From positions 8,077 to 72,076 of the forward strand of contig JAGVXA010000006.1 in NCBI GenBank assembly GCA_018304025.1: a stretch of DNA of 64,000 bases. The letters are read 5' to 3'. Below are positions 19,663 to 27,522 of the stretch, one piece after another (within the stretch, counting starts at the first letter, position 1; each line of letters starts with the position of its first letter). The position numbers and the translations under genes are program-made. The notes beneath the pieces are model-generated. The model was not told the origin of the DNA and made no database searches. It saw only the letters and a program-made list of their open reading frames with translations. Origin of the DNA: Candidatus Pacearchaeota archaeon (lineage in GTDB: Archaea > Nanobdellota > Nanobdellia > Pacearchaeales > GW2011-AR1).

Positions 19663-20689
19663 TTAAATTTTCTCAATTAAAGTATTAATTATTTCTTTTT
19701 TGAAATTCTCGCTTAAATTAAATGTATTTGCCCAGCGAGCATACGCCCGCCATCCATCAAAACTATCTTTAACAGATCCAAATTCATAACCACTCTCTTC
19801 AAATGATTTTATTTTATTTTTCATTCCGCGAATATTTCTAGTTCTCAATAGTTTATGGCTGGGAAAATTTCTAAAACCTAAAAAATCTATTCCTCTATAA
19901 ACTGAAATTATTTTAGTTTTGTCTGGATGTAACGATATGCCTAAATTGTCTTTAAGAAAGACATCAATCGCCCCCCCCCCCCGCAGTCAAATCCGCCCGC
20001 CGCCGATTCAAAATAACAAAGTCATCAACATATCTTATATAATATTTTTCTCGCAAAACATATTTGACAAAATAATCCAAGTCATTAAGATAAAGATTAG
20101 CAAAAAATTGCGACGTCAAATTGCCGAGAGGCATTCCAATTCCCTCTTTTTCAGTATTTCTTAAAATCTGAGCAATCAGCCAAATAACTTTTTCATCTTT
20201 TATTTTCCTGCGGATTATTTCAATTAATTTATCATGGCGGATATTTTGAAAATAATGCCTAATATCTGCTTTCAAGCAAAAACCACAATTTGTAAAATTA
20301 TTCGTTACTTTCCTTGAAAATTTATCAAATCTTTTTATAGCAAATAAAGTCCCTTTCCCTTTTTGGTTTGCGCATGAATCAAAGATAAATCCTTTTTCAA
20401 ATATCGGGCCAATTATTTTAATTAAACTATGATGAACAACTCTATCTCGAAAATCCGACTTTGAAATCACTCTTGTCTTCGGGTCTCTATGAACAAATGT
20501 TATTAGAGGTTCGGGCTGATAACTCTTCTTCTTAAGTTCATAATGCAGCATAAGAAGATTTTTTACTAAATCTTTCTCAAATTCAATTACATCCTCCCGC
20601 GTAGTTTTCCCCTTTCTTGCTTTGCGCCAGGCCAAGGTTAAATTTCCTAAAGAACAAATCTTATCATATAAATTATTATACGTTTTCAT
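19663..20689 (-). CDS. DGR reverse transcriptase, interrupted by a +1-nt frameshift in a G12 (plus-strand C12) tract
   Basis: Start MKTYNNLYDKICS (ATG 20689). Motifs RVISKSDFRDRVVHH, DIRHYFQNI, MPLGNLTSQFFANLYL ((I/L/V)GxxxSQ, DGR-specific) and YVDDFVI. After the 19971..19982 homopolymer the protein continues in another frame as AIDVFLKDNLGISLHPDKTKIISVYRGIDFLGFR...WANTF. Length 1027 nt = 342 codons + 1 nt. Confidence 0.85.
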
Positions 20690-20713
20690 GAGTATTCCTA
20701 GCCAAAAAATCTG

Positions 20714-20801
20714 AACTATTCGACCATTCGCGTTGGAGTTAGACAGCCTATTGTTGTTGGAGTTCAAATTGCGGTTACTATTAAGGTTGAACCTGGAAAT
20801 G
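20714..20801 (-). repeat. DGR template repeat (TR)
   Basis: 88 nt, 24 nt upstream of the RT ATG. 29 adenines in coding sense; in VR frame it would read ...ISRFNLNSNRNLNSNNNRLSNSNANGRIV (AAY-rich). The 59 non-A positions are identical to both VRs. Confidence 0.9.
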
Positions 20802-21045
20802 GATAGCCATTTACTTTTCAAAGCCACCATCACTTCATATTTCACTGCGATACAAAAGCAGTTACTTAATGTCGTGATTGAATTTTATATTCTTGCAAAG
20901 CAAGAACGTAAGCAAACGACGTGTAGCCCAGCCATTTAATTGACTAGGAATCTTTAAAGAACGGAGAGGTATTTATTTCTTCCTATTCAAAGTTCGCATT
21001 TTTGCCAAGAAGTTTTAAGAAGGCAATTATTTCAGCGACGTGCCT

Positions 21046-21855
21046 TCAACGCCCAGTAATCTGGCGATGTATGGGGCTGTACTCAGCACCTTCGGCACGA
21101 ACGCAAACTACCCGACCATCCGCGTTGGAGTCAGACAGCCCATTGTAGTCGGAGTACAAATCGCGGCCACTATTAAGGTCGAACCTGGAAATGCCTAAAT
21201 TATCTTCTGAAGGTTTATTTTGTGTTGAGTTATATAGTCTTCTTTTTCCACTACCAAGTTTTGAAGGCAATCCTGTTCTAATTAGTTCTGAATCATTTTC
21301 ATCAAAATTATTCGTCGGTTCAGCAAGAATTTTAGCTGTTCGCAGTTCTGTTCCTCTTTGGAATTTTGGCATTACTCCATAATCTCCAAATTTTGTATTT
21401 CTTAATCCATATCCAATCATAACAGCAGGCAATCTATCAAAATCTCTTAACTCTTTAGGCAGGCCTTCAAAAGTTTGTACAGCTAACTCATGATTGTTTC
21501 CAGAAAAATCTAAAACAAGACCCATATCAACATAATGATTTCCTTGAATTCGGATGGGGTCGCCTTCTTGAAGAGTTCTTTCTAATTCCTCTGGTTTGAT
21601 AATTCTAAACTCCGGAGCAATAATTTGATTTACAACAGGCAAAATTAAAGGATTTGAACCGAAGGTAGTCGGGACTTCATTAATCTCTCCCGATCTTAAA
21701 ACTTTCAGATTATCATTTCCATTATACTTTGAATCAATAACATTATTAATTTCTTTTAGAGTCGCAAGGGCATTTTTTCCTTTTAGAATATAAGGAGTTA
21801 CAGTTAGTTGCGGAATTGCTGGTTCAAGTCCTATTTGTGATTTTGTTTTTTTCAT
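21046..21855 (-). CDS. DGR target protein 1 (VR near the C-terminus, putative C-type-lectin-fold ligand-binding end)
   Basis: 269 aa with no signal peptide or TM. The C-terminus ...GISRFDLNSGRDLYSDYNGLSDSNADGRVVCVRAEG contains VR1. Confidence 0.8.
   Translation of the reverse strand: MKKTKSQIGLEPAIPQLTVTPYILKGKNALATLKEINNVIDSKYNGNDNLKVLRSGEINEVPTTFGSNPLILPVVNQIIAPEFRIIKPEELERTLQEGDPIRIQGNHYVDMGLVLDFSGNNHELAVQTFEGLPKELRDFDRLPAVMIGYGLRNTKFGDYGVMPKFQRGTELRTAKILAEPTNNFDENDSELIRTGLPSKLGSGKRRLYNSTQNKPSEDNLGISRFDLNSGRDLYSDYNGLSDSNADGRVVCVRAEGAEYSPIHRQITGR
21106..21193 (-). repeat. DGR variable repeat VR1
   Basis: 88 nt collinear with the TR. 12 substitutions, all at TR-A positions (plus-strand T to C or A). 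Confidence 0.9.
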
Positions 21856-22724
21856 TATTTCTTTCCTTCTAATTGACTAACAATTTGATTAAGACAGTTT
21901 CTTGTTCCCCTTAAACTTTCTAAAAGTTCGCTTCTTCGTTGTTGTTCTAAGATATTTTCATAATTCGGCGCGCCGCCTTCGGCGGAAACAAGAACTACCC
22001 GACCATACGCGACGGAGCCAGACAGCCCATCGTAGTAGGAGCTCAAATTGCGGTAACTATTAAGGACGAACCTGGAAATGCCATCTTTTCTTGTATACCA
22101 TATTCTTTTTCCTCTTTCTTTATCAAGTCCAACAGGCATTCCAATTTCATCTATTTCATCAAATTTCCATCCACTATATTTTCCTAAAAATCTCTCGTCG
22201 TAATGAACATTAAATCCTTTAGATGGAACAGCAATAAATCCATATCCTTCATCTTCATTTGGCCGAATGTCAAATCCTGTGATTAAAGCAGGTTCTCTAG
22301 AAATTTTCACAGTGTCAATTTTCCCGCTTTCTGCAATCAATTCAGCTATTCTATTATTGTCTTCATTATAACCATCTTGTAGACTTCTAAAAACTAAAGC
22401 ATTCGCTGTAGTATAATGTTTCCCGTCAGTCATTCGCATAAACTCTTCATTCCAATCTTTCGGCAATGAAACTCTCACACCATATCGTCTGACAACTTGG
22501 TCTATGAGATTAGCATCAGGAACATTTGCGCCGACAACTTCGTCTCCTTTTCTTTCTAATTGAAAATGTTTGTTCCCATTAAATCTTTCTGCTTTCGCTT
22601 CCTGATAAGCTTCGTAAATTATTCGTCCTGCTTCGCCAACTAAAAACGAAGGTGTCTGAACTATCATTCCATTTTTTCTAGGGACAAATACAATTTGTCC
22701 AAGTTTTTTTGCTGTTTCTGTCAT
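21855..22724 (-). CDS. DGR target protein 2 (paralogue of target 1)
   Basis: 289 aa with no signal peptide or TM. ...GISRFVLNSYRNLSSYYDGLSGSVAYGRVVLVSAEG contains VR2. One-nt overlap with target 1. Confidence 0.8.
   Translation of the reverse strand: MTETAKKLGQIVFVPRKNGMIVQTPSFLVGEAGRIIYEAYQEAKAERFNGNKHFQLERKGDEVVGANVPDANLIDQVVRRYGVRVSLPKDWNEEFMRMTDGKHYTTANALVFRSLQDGYNEDNNRIAELIAESGKIDTVKISREPALITGFDIRPNEDEGYGFIAVPSKGFNVHYDERFLGKYSGWKFDEIDEIGMPVGLDKERGKRIWYTRKDGISRFVLNSYRNLSSYYDGLSGSVAYGRVVLVSAEGGAPNYENILEQQRRSELLESLRGTRNCLNQIVSQLEGKK
21993..22080 (-). repeat. DGR variable repeat VR2
   Basis: 88 nt collinear with the TR. 15 substitutions, all at TR-A positions. Confidence 0.9.
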
Positions 22725-22872: not shown

Positions 22873-23472
22873 ATGCCAAAGAAAAAAACAAAAGAAGAAT
22901 TTGAAAAAGAACTCCAGGAAACTTTAATCCAGGTAGGATTAAGAATAGCAAAAAGAGGAGAAGGAGCGTTATTTGTCGTCGGAGAAGTGAAATACAAGTT
23001 GTTGGTGGATCAAGATGTTCCCCCATTCAATGTTACAAAAAATCCAAAACTTCTCGAATCTTTGGCGATAATGGACGGAGCAGTAATCATAGACAGCGAC
23101 GGAAAAATGAAAGCATACGGCGCGATGATTAAATCAACCAGAACTTTCAAGAATTTCGGAACAAGGCATTCTGCAGGAATCTCCGCGTCAAAAAAAGGAA
23201 ACCTCGTCGTCATAATCTCAGAAGAAGACAAAAAAGTCCGCGTGTTAAAAGAAGGAAAAATGATTTTGCAGATTGACGCATTGCAGAAAGGAGTTGAAAA
23301 ATCCGTTCCGCAGGCAGTTAATTTATTGGAATCAATCGGCGCAGGCACTCTCGGTGCAATCGGAACTTCAATTTTAGTTCCAACTCTTGGAATAACTCTC
23401 GGCCCCGGAATTCTCGTCTTCGGCTCCGCGTATTATCTGACGAAGATTCTCTCGCAAAAGTTGAGGAAATAA
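22873..23472 (+). CDS. DisA_N/DAC-domain protein (diadenylate cyclase-like) with C-terminal TM helices
   Basis: GEGALFVVGE...MDGAVIIDSDGKMKAYGAMI...FGTRHSAGISASKKGNLVVIISEEDKKVRVLKEG follows the DAC blocks (DGA, GTRHRAA, vSEE.g.v). RHR is changed to RHS. Confidence 0.7.
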   Translation: MPKKKTKEEFEKELQETLIQVGLRIAKRGEGALFVVGEVKYKLLVDQDVPPFNVTKNPKLLESLAIMDGAVIIDSDGKMKAYGAMIKSTRTFKNFGTRHSAGISASKKGNLVVIISEEDKKVRVLKEGKMILQIDALQKGVEKSVPQAVNLLESIGAGTLGAIGTSILVPTLGITLGPGILVFGSAYYLTKILSQKLRK

Positions 23473-23865: not shown

Positions 23866-25191
23866 ATGTTCGTTCTTTTCGCTATGAAGAATAGAGATGA
23901 TTTAATGCTGCGATTAAATCCAAAATTTCAAAAAATTATTTTTCAAAAAACCCTTGACAAATACGGAGATTCCCTCAAGGCAGGTTCAATTTTAAAAATT
24001 CCTGCAAGTTCAGTCAGAGGGTATAAGAATCTTTATTTTGATAGTGTGCCCAAAAATTTAATTAACGAATTAATCAGATTAAAAATAACTACACAAGGAG
24101 AAATTAAATTAAACACCTTATCCTCATTTATCAAAAGTCAGAAAGTAAAAGAAATATTAGGCAAAGGAAGGGAAAAAAGAAACGAAATCTTCCAAACAAT
24201 AAGAAAAGAAATTCCCCCTGTTAAAAAAATAATCAACAGTGGTAACTTAGAATTTTATAGATGGTTTGATAAATATAAATTATTATTAGATGCGCCTTTT
24301 AGAAGGATTCAAGTTAAAAACAACGATGATTTCATTATTGTCGAATATACAAACCACACAAGACATGGAAATAAACACTTTAAGGTAAACTTGCCTAAAA
24401 AAATAAAACTTGATTCAGAATTCTTTTATTTTTTCGGATTATGGTGCGGCGACAGATCAGGCGGAAAAAGATTTGGAATCGCCAATAAAAATAATGAGAT
24501 TATTAATTTTACAGAATATTTTTTAAAACAGAATAAACAAAGAGTAGAAAAGATATTATACATCACAAAAGGTTTAGAAATTCCTCGAATTAAATACGAC
24601 AAAAAATTCGAATTAGAGAACGAGAAAAAAGGATGGGTGCTGTCAGTACATTCGAACAATGGGATTCTAGCCTCTTTTTTTTATTATCTTCAGTCGCATA
24701 TCACAGAGATATTAACATCAGAAAAAAGCAAATATTCTTTTTTTGCTGGACTTTTTGATGCCGAAGGAAACGTTTCATTATATAATAAATCATTTAGATG
24801 GGCCTGTAAAAACGAGAATTTAATTAAGATATACACTGAAATCATGAAAGGGATTAATTTATACAGTAGATACGACGGCTCAAGTATTGTATCCTACAAT
24901 TCTGAAAAATTTTATAATAAAATTCTCCCTTTTTTAAAGCACAGCGAAAAGATTAACAATACTAACTTTTTATATAACGGAGCAGGGAGATTGCCAAAAG
25001 GATTCGGAGAGATTTTGAATTATATCAACAAAAATCCTAAACTGTCTGCTAAAGACATAGCGGAAGGTTTAAAAAAGAACAAAGTTTACTCCGAATTGAA
25101 ATTGCTGAATGATTTTGGCTTTATCAAGCCTAGCAATTACCCGAAGGAGTTTGATATAACAACTAAGGGATTAAAATCATTAGGAGAATAA
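23866..25191 (+). CDS. free-standing double-motif LAGLIDADG homing-endonuclease-like protein with DNA-binding extensions
   Basis: FFGLWCGDRSGG and FFAGLFDAEGNVS are the two LAGLIDADG motifs. The TATA aaagtataaataca lies so close to the first ATG that the real start may be ATG 23884 (MKNRDD). Confidence 0.7.
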   Translation: MFVLFAMKNRDDLMLRLNPKFQKIIFQKTLDKYGDSLKAGSILKIPASSVRGYKNLYFDSVPKNLINELIRLKITTQGEIKLNTLSSFIKSQKVKEILGKGREKRNEIFQTIRKEIPPVKKIINSGNLEFYRWFDKYKLLLDAPFRRIQVKNNDDFIIVEYTNHTRHGNKHFKVNLPKKIKLDSEFFYFFGLWCGDRSGGKRFGIANKNNEIINFTEYFLKQNKQRVEKILYITKGLEIPRIKYDKKFELENEKKGWVLSVHSNNGILASFFYYLQSHITEILTSEKSKYSFFAGLFDAEGNVSLYNKSFRWACKNENLIKIYTEIMKGINLYSRYDGSSIVSYNSEKFYNKILPFLKHSEKINNTNFLYNGAGRLPKGFGEILNYINKNPKLSAKDIAEGLKKNKVYSELKLLNDFGFIKPSNYPKEFDITTKGLKSLGE

Positions 25192-25638: not shown

Positions 25639-27522
25639 ATGAGATATAAATTTTTAGCAGCTATAGTGGGAATAGTATTACTTATCTTTCTAGTTTCTGC
25701 AGTCCCTCAATTATTAGTTAATTCTCCTTCCTCATCTCCATTTTACACAACAAACACTTCTGTTGAATTAAATTTTTCAATAATAGAAAGCAATTTAGGA
25801 AGCTTAATCTATAACTGGAATGGAACAAACTTTACTTTTTATGATTCTTCTTTAGTATTAATGATGAATTTTGATAATAGAAGCGGTTTGGGAGAAAATG
25901 ATACCTATGCTATTGATGTTTCAAGATATGGAAACAATGGCACGTTAATTAACGGGACTATTTGGAACTCCTCTGGGAAATATAATGGTGCTCTTGAGTT
26001 TGATGGAGTTGATGATTATATGGGGGTTGTAAATAGTGAATCCCTAAATACGGCTAATTCTAATTCTTCAAATTACACAATTTCCTTCTGGACAAAAACA
26101 ACTATGAATGGAGCAGATATTTGGACTCAACCCACATTTATTGATTTTAGAAATACTGGCGATGATCCTTATGAAGGTTGGGTTTTCTCTATTTTCCTTA
26201 ACGCACAAAATACAACTGGATTCTTAACAGGAGGGGCAATTTCTCCAGCTTATCCGGCTGGATATTGGGATATAATAAATGGTTCGACAATTATTAATGA
26301 TGGAGATTGGCATCACATAAGTGTTGTTAAAAAGAATACAGAATCAATAAAAATATATGTAGATGGATTTGAAGATGCAACAGGTTCTTCCGATAAGAAT
26401 TTTTCTACAAATGAGTTAATGACTATTGGATGCAGAAGAAACGATGCAGGAGGATATAGAGATTATTTTAATGGCTCAATAGATGAAGTCCGAATCTGGA
26501 ACAGAAGTTTATCTGCTTCAGAAATATACCAACAATATGCTTCTAATTTAAATAAATTCAATTTAACACAATGGAATTTTTATGTTAATCAATCTAAAAA
26601 TGCAACAGCAGGATTAGATTACGGAATCTATACCTATCAAACATTTGCAACAAATACCAGCGGAAGTTTGAATTCTACAGATTTGAGAACAATTAAAATA
26701 CAGTCAGATATTATTTTTCCACTTGTTAATTTCACTTCTCCAACACCTCAGAATGCAACAACAACCTCAAACACTTCTTTTATTGTTAATGTTTCTATCA
26801 ATGAACAGAATTTAAATTCTGTGATTTACAATTGGAATGGAACAAACTTTACTTTTTATAATTCTTCTTTAGTCTTGATGATGAATTTTGATAATAGAAG
26901 TGAATTAGGAGAGAATGATACTTATGTTATTGATGTTTCAGGATATGAAAATAATGGAACTTTAGGAAATTTGAGCACCATAACTCAACCTACTTGGAAC
27001 TCTTCTGGGAAATATAATGGTGCTTTTGAATTTGGTGGAAATAAAAGTTATATAAAAATTTCTAATTCTCAATTTAAATTTGGGTCTAATCCTTTTAGTG
27101 TCTCTTTTTGGTTTAATGCTAATGAATTTGGAAATGGTAACACTAAAAAATTAATTTCATGTACAGAATCGGGTGGATGGTCCGTCGGTTTTGAAAGCTC
27201 TTATCTTCAATTTGTATTTCATAATGGTTCTTATATGAGAACTTTTTATCCTGAATCAAGTTTAACAACGAATGAGTGGTACTATGTAACTGGAATTTGG
27301 AACACTACAAATATTTTATTATATGTGGATGGAATTTTAGTTGATACAAATTCTACTACTGGTTCATTAACTTCTCATGCGACTGCTCCACTATGTATTG
27401 GCTCTGAAGCAACATCTACTGGATGTGAATTTTCTACTTGGTATTTTAATGGTTCAATAGATGAAGTAAGGATTTGGAATAGAACTTTATCTACCGCTGA
27501 AATTTATCAGCAATATGCTTAA
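25639..27522 (+). CDS. secreted protein with two LamG/ConA-like lectin domains (internal tandem duplication), probably the 5' part of a disrupted larger gene
   Basis: Signal peptide AAIVGIVLLIFLVSA. GSIDEVRIWNRSLSASEIYQQYA and GSIDEVRIWNRTLSTAEIYQQYA are LamG_3-type ends. About 340-aa repeat unit; many NxS/T sequons. Confidence 0.75.
   Translation: MRYKFLAAIVGIVLLIFLVSAVPQLLVNSPSSSPFYTTNTSVELNFSIIESNLGSLIYNWNGTNFTFYDSSLVLMMNFDNRSGLGENDTYAIDVSRYGNNGTLINGTIWNSSGKYNGALEFDGVDDYMGVVNSESLNTANSNSSNYTISFWTKTTMNGADIWTQPTFIDFRNTGDDPYEGWVFSIFLNAQNTTGFLTGGAISPAYPAGYWDIINGSTIINDGDWHHISVVKKNTESIKIYVDGFEDATGSSDKNFSTNELMTIGCRRNDAGGYRDYFNGSIDEVRIWNRSLSASEIYQQYASNLNKFNLTQWNFYVNQSKNATAGLDYGIYTYQTFATNTSGSLNSTDLRTIKIQSDIIFPLVNFTSPTPQNATTTSNTSFIVNVSINEQNLNSVIYNWNGTNFTFYNSSLVLMMNFDNRSELGENDTYVIDVSGYENNGTLGNLSTITQPTWNSSGKYNGAFEFGGNKSYIKISNSQFKFGSNPFSVSFWFNANEFGNGNTKKLISCTESGGWSVGFESSYLQFVFHNGSYMRTFYPESSLTTNEWYYVTGIWNTTNILLYVDGILVDTNSTTGSLTSHATAPLCIGSEATSTGCEFSTWYFNGSIDEVRIWNRTLSTAEIYQQYA

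Follow-up and report, generated by a model that had tools for sequence, protein, structure and literature searches.

In the diversity-generating retroelement (DGR) of Bordetella phage BPP-1, ordered mtd-avd-TR-Sp-brt, the copying of a template repeat (TR) begins with cDNA that is cis-primed from residue A56 of the spacer RNA (Sp), at the end of a short TR:Sp duplex set against the first copied nucleotide, and the accessory protein Avd is required (PMC7826257; bioRxiv 10.1101/2023.10.23.563531). The BPP-1 RNA contains both a TR:Sp and an avd:Sp duplex (PMC7826257; bioRxiv 10.1101/2023.10.23.563531); a second duplex, which joins the RNA on either side of the TR, serves as a stop (bioRxiv 10.1101/2023.10.23.563531). 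Described here is a DGR locus within a 64,000-nt stretch of DNA (termed here the window) from a Candidatus Pacearchaeota archaeon (GenBank assembly GCA_018304025.1, contig JAGVXA010000006.1, positions 8,077 to 72,076 of the forward strand). Its TR is joined on the 5' side by a structured RNA of the Rfam family RT-16, and its reverse transcriptase (RT) gene contains a frame-breaking run of G residues.

DGRs of DPANN archaea, including those of Nanoarchaeota, are reportedly the subject of Paul et al. 2015 (Nat Commun) and Paul et al. 2017 (Nat Microbiol). In Pacearchaeota and Woesearchaeota, DGRs have been documented as prevalent (PMC6349945). This prevalence, together with the at least 592 related RT loci found in DPANN genomes by the survey described below, agrees with the remark, made in an earlier reading of the window from its letters and translations (termed here the sequence-only reading), that the class is not new and that DGRs are known in DPANN archaea. 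The RT-16 RNA has been published solely as an RNA near RT genes, for which a retron or DGR function was suggested (Weinberg et al. 2017, PMC5737381).

The best explanation of the locus, taken as a whole and including the mechanism proposed below, is with very high confidence that it is a genuine DGR, a typical member of a large DPANN DGR clade, residing in a Candidatus Pacearchaeota chromosome. Every feature of the locus lies on the minus strand. Those on which the identification chiefly depends, including the variable repeats (VRs) and the open reading frames (ORFs) that contain them, are as follows.

19663..22724, minus strand: DGR locus, which reads 5' to 3' as target 2 - target 1 - RT-16 - TR - RT
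21855..22724, minus strand: target gene 2, an ORF of 289 aa; globular domain, VR internal but close to the C-terminus, and C-terminal helix predicted to span 34 residues
21993..22080, minus strand: VR2, 88 nt, with 15 differences from the TR, all at TR adenines
21046..21855, minus strand: target gene 1, an ORF of 269 aa, paralogue of target 2
21106..21193, minus strand: VR1, 88 nt, with 12 differences from the TR, all at TR adenines
20714..20801, minus strand: TR, 88 nt, with 29 adenines and 11 AAY codons
19663..20689, minus strand: DGR reverse transcriptase gene, frameshifted here, 341 aa if its poly-G tract is G11

A repeat search returned one three-copy family (20697-20803, 21089-21195 and 21976-22082), and no further copy of the TR or VRs was found elsewhere in the 64-kb window. 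In ungapped alignment with the TR, the differences within VR1 comprise 10 A>G and 2 A>T changes and those within VR2 comprise 9 A>G and 6 A>T changes. All 27 differences fall upon the 29 TR adenines, and all 59 non-adenine positions are the same in the three copies; the hypergeometric probability of this adenine-only placement is 2.5e-7 for VR1 and 2.4e-9 for VR2. When read in the VR frame, the TR specifies ISRFNLNSNRNLNSNNNRLSNSNANGRIV, which corresponds to 11 AAY codons among 17 adenine-containing codons and to a coding potential of about 10^15.8 protein variants, none of which includes a stop codon. From the end of VR1 to the stop of target 1 there are 20 codons, and from the end of VR2 to the stop of target 2 there are 46.

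Realignment reproduced exactly the repeat coordinates and counts of the sequence-only reading (12 and 15 differences, 29 adenines, 59 non-adenine positions), with no non-adenine mismatch. Its description of an Asn-codon-rich TR that avoids stop codons likewise holds, as does its placement of the TR 24 nt ahead of the RT gene. Its core--one TR, two adenine-mutagenised VRs and tandem paralogous targets--is upheld by the adenine-only pattern and, as described below, by kinship of the RT to the BPP-1 enzyme (bRT), by hairpins adjoining the VRs and by the layout shared across the clade.

The RT start codon lies at 20689, which leaves a TR-RT spacer of 24 nt, and the encoded protein contains an RT domain (Pfam RVT_1, E 4.5e-20). 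A [LIV]GxxxSQ motif within RT domain 4 (in which SQ is the final pair) is diagnostic of DGR RTs; here the sequences PLGNLTSQ and YVDD, both of which the sequence-only reading had singled out (the former as LGNLTSQ), do not vary across an alignment that includes 28 close homologues. Of the solved RTs, the closest is PDB 8ub7 (E 2.7e-49, 171 bits), a chain that was verified to be 100% identical to brt of BPP-1; the next are group II-type RTs at no more than 69 bits. The word 'complete' that had been applied to this DGR is not to be taken literally for the window, in which the RT is not one open frame: a G12 frameshift divides it into an N-terminal ORF of 241 aa and a C-terminal piece of its own that ends at 19663. 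Deletion of a single G restores a 341-aa RT, the length and sequence of which fit the family.

The two targets abut and are 25% identical (BLASTP, E 1e-14), which bears out the earlier claim of adjacent paralogous genes with a VR in the 3' part. Target 1 matches the target-family profile at 4.9e-52; this family comprises 696 clusters at 50% identity (by profile search) and includes 40 of the 83 VR-bearing ORFs found at related loci. Searches with the target sequences against Pfam, NCBIfam and the PDB (the latter both by single sequence and by a 104-sequence profile) returned nothing significant, and when the sequences were read by eye no obvious signal peptide or membrane segment was seen in either target. 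An AlphaFold2 (AF2) model of target 2 was built on 104 sequences (predicted local distance difference score, pLDDT, 93.6); it replaced an earlier model (11 sequences, pLDDT 80) whose Foldseek matches were meaningless. The model predicts a mixed alpha/beta globular domain, with the VR on strands and loops at residues 216-247, followed by the C-terminal helix. Foldseek matches to the PDB are headed almost exclusively by C-type lectins (SP-A, SP-D, CD23, MBP, ASGR1) together with the DGR protein TaqVP, at E 0.1-2 and TM-scores of at most 0.5; among the viral models of BFVD the best matches (E 0.008-0.02, probability 0.82) are to crAss-like or tail-collar fibre proteins and to FGE-like proteins. 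The modelled fold is weakly indicated to lean towards a divergent C-type-lectin-like (CLec-like) form. As to the lectin fold that the sequence-only reading had proposed to look for in the target C-termini, lectins are indeed among the top matches of the model, short of significance (PDB E of at least 0.1). A match to SNORD47 inside target 2 is weak (E 0.067) and was judged to be due to chance.

The clade was surveyed by a pattern scan of GTDB representative genomes, which yielded at least 592 relatives of the RT, and the best 80 loci were fetched. Nearly all of these 80 come from genomes with DPANN labels (Woese-, Pace- and Nanoarchaeota or unclassified archaea), and a few carry other labels. 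One of them (L024), with an RT 60% identical to that of the window, comes from Nanoarchaeota SCGC AAA011-G17, which is reportedly the genome of the original archaeal DGR report. The target(s)-TR-RT layout, with VRs, is shared by 65 of the 80 loci; their 83 VRs all lie upstream of the RT on the same strand, one per locus in 49 cases, two in 14 and three in 2. Because 16 of the 65 loci have two or three VRs, the two-target arrangement of the window is a common variant. Changes at adenine sites within the 83 VRs number 1168 (765 A>G, 350 A>T and 53 A>C), and 164 changes occur at non-adenine sites, mostly at the permissive ends of the segments compared.

Within the strain represented by the window, the VR1 proteins are identical in 24 public contigs and the VR2 proteins in 22. 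Since the VRs are invariant among assemblies and the TR/VR differences are confined to adenines, activity of this strain's DGR is shown only historically: the sequence-only reading's phrase 'apparently active' is borne out only on an evolutionary timescale, over which no non-adenine TR/VR difference has arisen. In a sister lineage (RT 77% identical, one target), two contigs (L012 and L011) differ from each other at 33 positions in 6.4 kb, 18 of which lie within the 88-nt VR and none within the adjacent 5.4 kb, and the differences of either VR from their common TR are at adenines. For two related targets, the protein clusters likewise hold variants that differ only at VR codons.

Just 3' of each VR of the window lies a GC hairpin with a GAA loop; the TR has none.

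21973..21985, minus strand: hairpin 3' of VR2 (CCGCC-GAA-GGCGG in the coding sense)
21086..21098, minus strand: hairpin 3' of VR1 (GUGCC-GAA-GGUGC, with two G-U pairs)

At related loci a GC hairpin occurs 3' of 71 of the 83 VRs (with a GAA loop in 43 of the 71) but of only 3 of the 83 TRs; random windows contain one in 7.5% of cases. Another mark of the target sites is that, clade-wide, more than 90% of VRs read GGGUAG where the TR reads GAAUAG. Expressed per site, the last two TR adenines (20719..20720 in the window) are G in more than 90% of VRs, compared with an average of 53% for adenine sites (77 TR/VR pairs, from L003 and L015-L094). This excess of G reflects either an initiation bias of the RT or a donor/recipient mark resembling the IMH/IMH* (initiation of mutagenic homing) pair.

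The 245-nt 'gap' between target 1 and the TR, the content of which was overlooked in the sequence-only reading, is filled by RT-16. Features of this RNA, of its putative promoter and of two long-range helices (termed here A and B) that join it to the sequences around the TR 3' end are listed next.

20970..20976, minus strand: putative archaeal TATA box ATAAATA, 22-28 nt upstream of the RT-16 5' end
20798..20948, minus strand: RNA motif RT-16 (Rfam RF03019), immediately 5' of the TR, scoring 90.9 bits where the gathering score is 50
20940..20951, minus strand: helix A, 5' arm AUUCCUAGUCAA, predicted to pair with 20705..20694
20694..20705, minus strand: helix A, 3' arm UUGGCUAGGAAU, in the TR-RT spacer and overlapping a possible ribosome-binding AGGA
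20924..20931, minus strand: helix B, RT-16 strand CUGGGCUA, predicted to pair with 20718..20711
20711..20718, minus strand: helix B, TR 3'-end strand UAGUUCAG

The match spans the whole model (positions 1-158 of 158). Among 78 related GTDB loci, 71 have an RT-16 whose end coincides with the TR start, as does that of the sister lineage; most of the misses are loci truncated upstream. Departures from the usual arrangement were also noticed: at two loci (L074, 5152-5300, minus strand; L084, 2777-2890, minus strand) RT-16, and presumably the TR too, lies downstream of the RT on the opposite strand, and a third (L022, 671-888, plus strand) has a second RT-16 copy 3 kb upstream. Across 67 related loci, a block of 93-100% A+T occurs at -29..-23 from the RT-16 start, and the starts of TATA-like motifs cluster at -30..-27. 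This suggests that the transcript starts at the RT-16 motif, from what would be a promoter just ahead of it. RT-16 is proposed to be the structured 5' domain of the DGR RNA.

Helix A (CCUAGUCAA/UUGGCUAGG) is formed by pairing of the first 9-12 nt of RT-16 with the spacer just ahead of the RT AUG, and it appears in both the minimum free energy (MFE) and the centroid folds of the window and of the sister lineage. Its sequences clearly vary from locus to locus. When the duplex between arm and spacer is ranked against random windows of its own locus, it falls within the top 1% in 28 of 69 loci and within the top 5% in 43 of 69; among full-length RNAs, helix A is part of the MFE fold in 56 of 66, compared with 7 of 66 controls in which the 3' end was swapped. 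A covariation count based on a MAFFT alignment gives 73% paired cells, a value reached in 1 of 500 shuffles; subfamily register shifts blur this count, and reliance is placed upon the alignment-free duplex rank and the whole-RNA folds. Since helix A and the local P1 of the Rfam model compete, the RNA may adopt either of two states.

Helix B pairs a conserved, nominally unpaired segment of RT-16, GG(G/A)C(U/C)A, with the conserved TR 3' end, U(A/G)G(C/U)YY, and it likewise occurs in the MFE and centroid folds of the window. Over 67 loci, one varying position is U:A in 27, C:G in 33, U.G in 4 and C-A in 3 (Fisher 2e-11); a second is A:U in 14, G:C in 40, G.U in 7 and A-C in 2 (Fisher 3e-7). The full set of six pairs is present in 43 of the 67. 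The terminal A of the RT-16 strand (20924), which was required by the motif search, is present in all but two of the loci searched. Throughout the clade, helix B marks the exact end of both TR/VR homology and adenine mutagenesis: of 77 VRs, 72 and 70 are changed at the two adenines that immediately precede it, nearly always to G; an A inside the duplex is changed in 1 of 39; and past this A similarity is lost. An additional pairing in the MFE fold, of 20921-20912 (RT-16 P2) with 20731-20721 (TR interior), was rejected on the grounds that it conflicts with the curated P2 and has no support across loci. The base pairing of helices A and B is well supported. What is new at the level of the clade is the position of RT-16 at the TR, both long-range helices, and the boundary at helix B; a literature search in which Paul et al. 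2017 was left aside found no published description of the RT-16/TR link, of the long-range helices or of the poly-G tract.

By analogy with the TR:Sp duplex of the Bordetella phage, these elements suggest the following mechanism. A single transcript, probably initiated from the TATA box about 25 nt upstream of RT-16, would carry RT-16, the 88-nt TR, the 24-nt spacer and the RT ORF. Helix B (GGCYA:UAGYY) would act as the template:primer duplex, with A20924, which closes GGCYA, priming the cDNA and with TR adenines 20719 and 20720 as the first templated bases. The RT would copy the TR into cDNA, misreading template adenines (the outcome in the sense strand being mostly A>G, then A>T), and synthesis would stop at the basal helix of RT-16, which lies directly against the 5' end of the TR. 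Helix A would close the unit and, as it overlaps the likely ribosome-binding site of the RT, may couple RNA folding to RT translation. The cDNA would then replace the homologous 88-nt VR near the 3' end of either tandem target, each presumably marked by its GC hairpin with GAA loop just 3' of the VR, so that up to 17 codons (11 of them AAY) of a putative ligand-binding surface would be re-randomised. The upstream RNA would in this way do the job of a downstream spacer RNA, and possibly that of Avd, in a retron-like topology. Upstream, Avd-independent cis-priming from RT-16 is inferred because the spacer is only 24 nt long, because no Avd was found and because 29% of curated DGRs are without accessory genes (PMC5758913). 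As to Avd itself, no ORF lies between target 1 and the TR, and no Avd-like Pfam match was seen among the neighbouring genes or 24 of the window's small ORFs; the poor conservation of Avd leaves its absence unproven. Accessory proteins of DGRs (Avd, or alternatively HRDC, MSL or CH1) are not obligatory.

The frameshift in the RT gene is due to a run of G residues, the length of which varies.

19971..19982, minus strand: poly-G tract, G12 in the coding sense (a C run on the plus strand), between YVDD and LHPDK

Around the tract the GC content is locally 69%, as against 37% for the genome. For the same strain there are versions with G11 (341 aa, in frame), with G12 (the window), with G14 (342 aa, in frame) and with GGTG9, as well as one lacking 'GC'; about 6 kb around the DGR are the same in four assemblies save for the length of the tract. 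At the same codons the sister lineage has G9 in 6 and G10 in 7 fetched contigs, all of which are out of frame, and no in-frame RT of this lineage was found in a collection of 5.8 billion proteins. Elsewhere in the clade, G9 occurs in frame at the post-YVDD site in L023 and L025, and runs of G9-G11 occur in the loop ahead of PLGN in L031, L036, L060 and L072. Over the 80 GTDB loci, G runs of at least nine number 6 in 81 kb of RT coding sequence versus 0 in 465 kb of flanks. The G tract is a real, recurrent feature of the RT genes of this clade. A scan of metagenomes for more tract-length variants turned up no new contig, and a literature search for a poly-G tract in DGR RTs or in DPANN archaea found nothing. 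At one end of another contig (L007, 1-37) there is a 22-nt poly-G run following GGTGGGG repeats, a typical artefact of two-colour sequencing, and G runs in these data need to be handled with care.

The tract is part of a 45-50-nt patch of the RT gene (window 19960..20010) that is 11% A and 53% G, versus about 37% A in the rest of the gene; relatives have A-rich Lys/Glu codons there. Because relatives read TGG AAA AAA GAA ATT where the tract lineages read TGG GGG GGG GCG ATT, the tract is derivable from an A-rich stretch by adenine-only changes, and the G-rich patch may reflect collateral adenine mutagenesis of the RT's own gene. Both strands of the window were scanned, allowing for adenine-only mismatches, for a second template that could account for this patch, and none was found. 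The length of the tract may be a contingency switch in cells, it may be bypassed during expression, or it may be a sequencing mis-call. A more far-reaching proposal is that this DPANN DGR clade works without Avd, that RT-16 serves it as both primer and scaffold in a retron-like permutation, and that the hypermutable G tract, possibly made by the element itself through A-to-G mutagenesis, is an on/off switch; with all of its parts, this proposal is tentative and rather unlikely to hold.

Several points weigh against the interpretation of the locus as a DGR that operates in the manner proposed. No Avd homologue is found in the window, although Avd is essential in the Bordetella system, and in the window as it stands a frameshift interrupts the RT ORF. 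Public assemblies contain no VR variant of this strain, which leaves current activity unproven. The match of the modelled target fold to C-type lectins is not significant (PDB E of at least 0.1; BFVD E 0.008-0.02). Helix A and the local P1 hairpin of the Rfam model are mutually exclusive, and the MAFFT-based covariation of helix A is moderate (73% paired); moreover, the covariation tests ignore the phylogenetic non-independence of the loci. Priming from RT-16, finally, is proposed by analogy with BPP-1. A rival explanation takes the three repeats for ordinary paralogous sequence that gene conversion keeps similar, and the RT for that of a retron or a group II intron; this alternative has next to no chance of being correct. 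It can draw upon the NCBIfam search, in which the RT passed no model and the best, sub-threshold one was that of the group II intron RT/maturase (TIGR04416, 134 bits versus a cutoff of 300), and upon the resemblance of the proposed RNA topology to the retron a1/a2 arrangement. It is effectively refuted, however, by differences that lie exclusively at TR adenines, a pattern that recurs in the 83 VRs of the 65 related loci, by a TR that is non-coding, that stands directly ahead of the RT and that lacks the VR hairpin, and by bRT being by far the closest solved RT. Furthermore, Rfam finds no group II intron RNA family in the window, no maturase or endonuclease domains are present, and no retron family in NCBIfam reaches its cutoff (the retron St85 RT model scores 46 bits versus 235).

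Two further explanations accept the DGR and differ as to the meaning of its G tract. According to one, the DGR is decaying or switched off, its RT being a permanently frameshifted pseudogene and its VRs fossils of past mutagenesis, in keeping with the break in the frame at G12, with the existence of out-of-frame RT versions in other assemblies too (P0001, P0123) and with the invariance of VR1 and VR2 across contigs. Yet the in-frame G11 and G14 versions come from 100%-identical sibling contigs; there are zero non-adenine TR/VR differences and no other lesion; RT-16, the helices and the hairpins are all intact; and the sister lineage, which assembles only with out-of-frame tracts, nonetheless shows VR turnover. 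Decay is, in light of this, distinctly improbable. According to the other explanation, the differences in poly-G length are homopolymer noise introduced by sequencing or assembly, the real gene is intact (G11) and nothing is regulated; this stands only slightly below an even chance. The tract is the sole differing site in about 6 kb between assemblies, one of its versions has an error-like G>T change within the run, and long G runs are, as a matter of general knowledge, error-prone on short-read platforms. Noise would not readily explain, however, why the tract is kept at the same codons in the 77%-identical sister lineage (G9/G10) and, in frame as G9, in L023 and L025, why long G runs occur within RT genes and nowhere in the flanks, or why the sister lineage is never in frame in 13 fetched contigs and has no full-length version among 5.8 billion proteins.

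The neighbours of the DGR are chromosomal--tRNA-Lys, ribosomal proteins S7 and S12, thioredoxin, NrdR, RNA polymerase subunit N, LemA, an M48 peptidase and a DAC-domain protein--and these genes confirm the chromosomal embedding that the sequence-only reading had claimed. The locus is already public, in that its proteins stand in GenBank: MBS3088540-42, from a Candidatus Pacearchaeota metagenome-assembled genome, match the truncated RT and both targets exactly, and the 'uncultured archaeon' records AQS31742-44 and AQS31843-46 also match the RT and target proteins. The AQS accessions are assumed here, most likely, to stem from the survey of Paul et al. 2017. The names of the contigs (ANAN16-1, SAMN0320...) identify the Rifle aquifer metagenome series as their source.

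Three genes beyond target 2 were also noted. The DAC (diadenylate cyclase) domain protein (22873..23472, plus strand), which has a hydrophobic C-terminus, is divergent to target 2 and is present in all sibling contigs. A 441-aa ORF adjoining the DGR region (23866..25191, plus strand), likewise kept in all sibling contigs, shows weak matches to LAGLIDADG_3 and HTH_24, below the Pfam cutoffs, and may be a free-standing homing-endonuclease-like gene. A 627-aa protein (25639..27522, plus strand) is internally duplicated, each half ending ...FNGSIDEVRIWNR(S/T)LS(A/T)(S/T)EIYQQYA, and contains many N-x-S/T motifs; it is probably lectin-like and either secreted or at the surface.

A DGR within a Pacearchaeota chromosome is expected biology, and what this locus offers is a clean reference for the dominant type of DPANN DGR. 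The added interest lies at the level of the clade, in the frameshifting G tract and in the RT-16/TR architecture. Through the latter, an orphan Rfam family gains a position and a candidate function, namely that of clamping both ends of the template and probably supplying the primer; if true, RT-16 priming would explain how the RT starts in Avd-less DGRs that have almost no TR-RT spacer. The target family of roughly 250-290-aa proteins (those 696 clusters) is unclassified and is a major target of DPANN DGRs. The recurrence of frame-breaking G tracts in the RT genes of the clade raises the possibility that hypermutation is switched on and off.

With respect to its G tract, the RT gene resembles the phase-variable contingency loci of bacteria (general knowledge), in that it contains a coding G run whose length varies between assemblies and toggles the frame; it is unlike them in that this variation is known from assemblies alone. 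With respect to its targets, the closest parallel is AvpA, where the VR is internal, close to the C-terminus, and leads into a helical extension encoded by hairpin-bearing DNA (Handa et al. 2016, PMC5006420): the targets of the window share the internal VR and the hairpin-encoding helical tail and are unlike AvpA in sequence, no relation being detectable at that level. To the BPP-1 DGR the locus is alike in adenine-specific TR-to-VR transfer, in a homologous RT and in a hairpin 3' of the VR; at the RNA level it is alike in that the TR 3' end enters a short duplex beside the first copied nucleotide and in that TR-flanking sequences pair. It differs from BPP-1 in having no detected Avd, a TR-RT spacer of 24 nt rather than 140 nt, and two targets, in the predominance of A>G within the substitution spectrum of its clade, and in that the structured RNA (RT-16, about 150 nt) and the partner of the TR 3' end are upstream, whereas in BPP-1 they are downstream.

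The predicted topology is that of a retron msr-msd RNA: structured non-template RNA on the 5' side, template on the 3' side, and ends closed by an a1/a2-like helix; in the model for the window, as in retrons, the closing helix sets a conserved purine beside the template 3' end. The resemblance is one of predicted RNA topology only, for the RT here is of the DGR type and its product is proposed to home into VRs. Relative to the Rfam description of RT-16, the RNA is here placed exactly at the 5' edge of DGR TRs, and two parts of it, the conserved, 'unpaired' CUACAC/GGCYA region and the 5' arm of P1, pair with distant segments around the TR. Finally, with the DGRs of DPANN archaea and Nanoarchaeota the element of the window shares both the RT clade and the target(s)-TR-RT layout.

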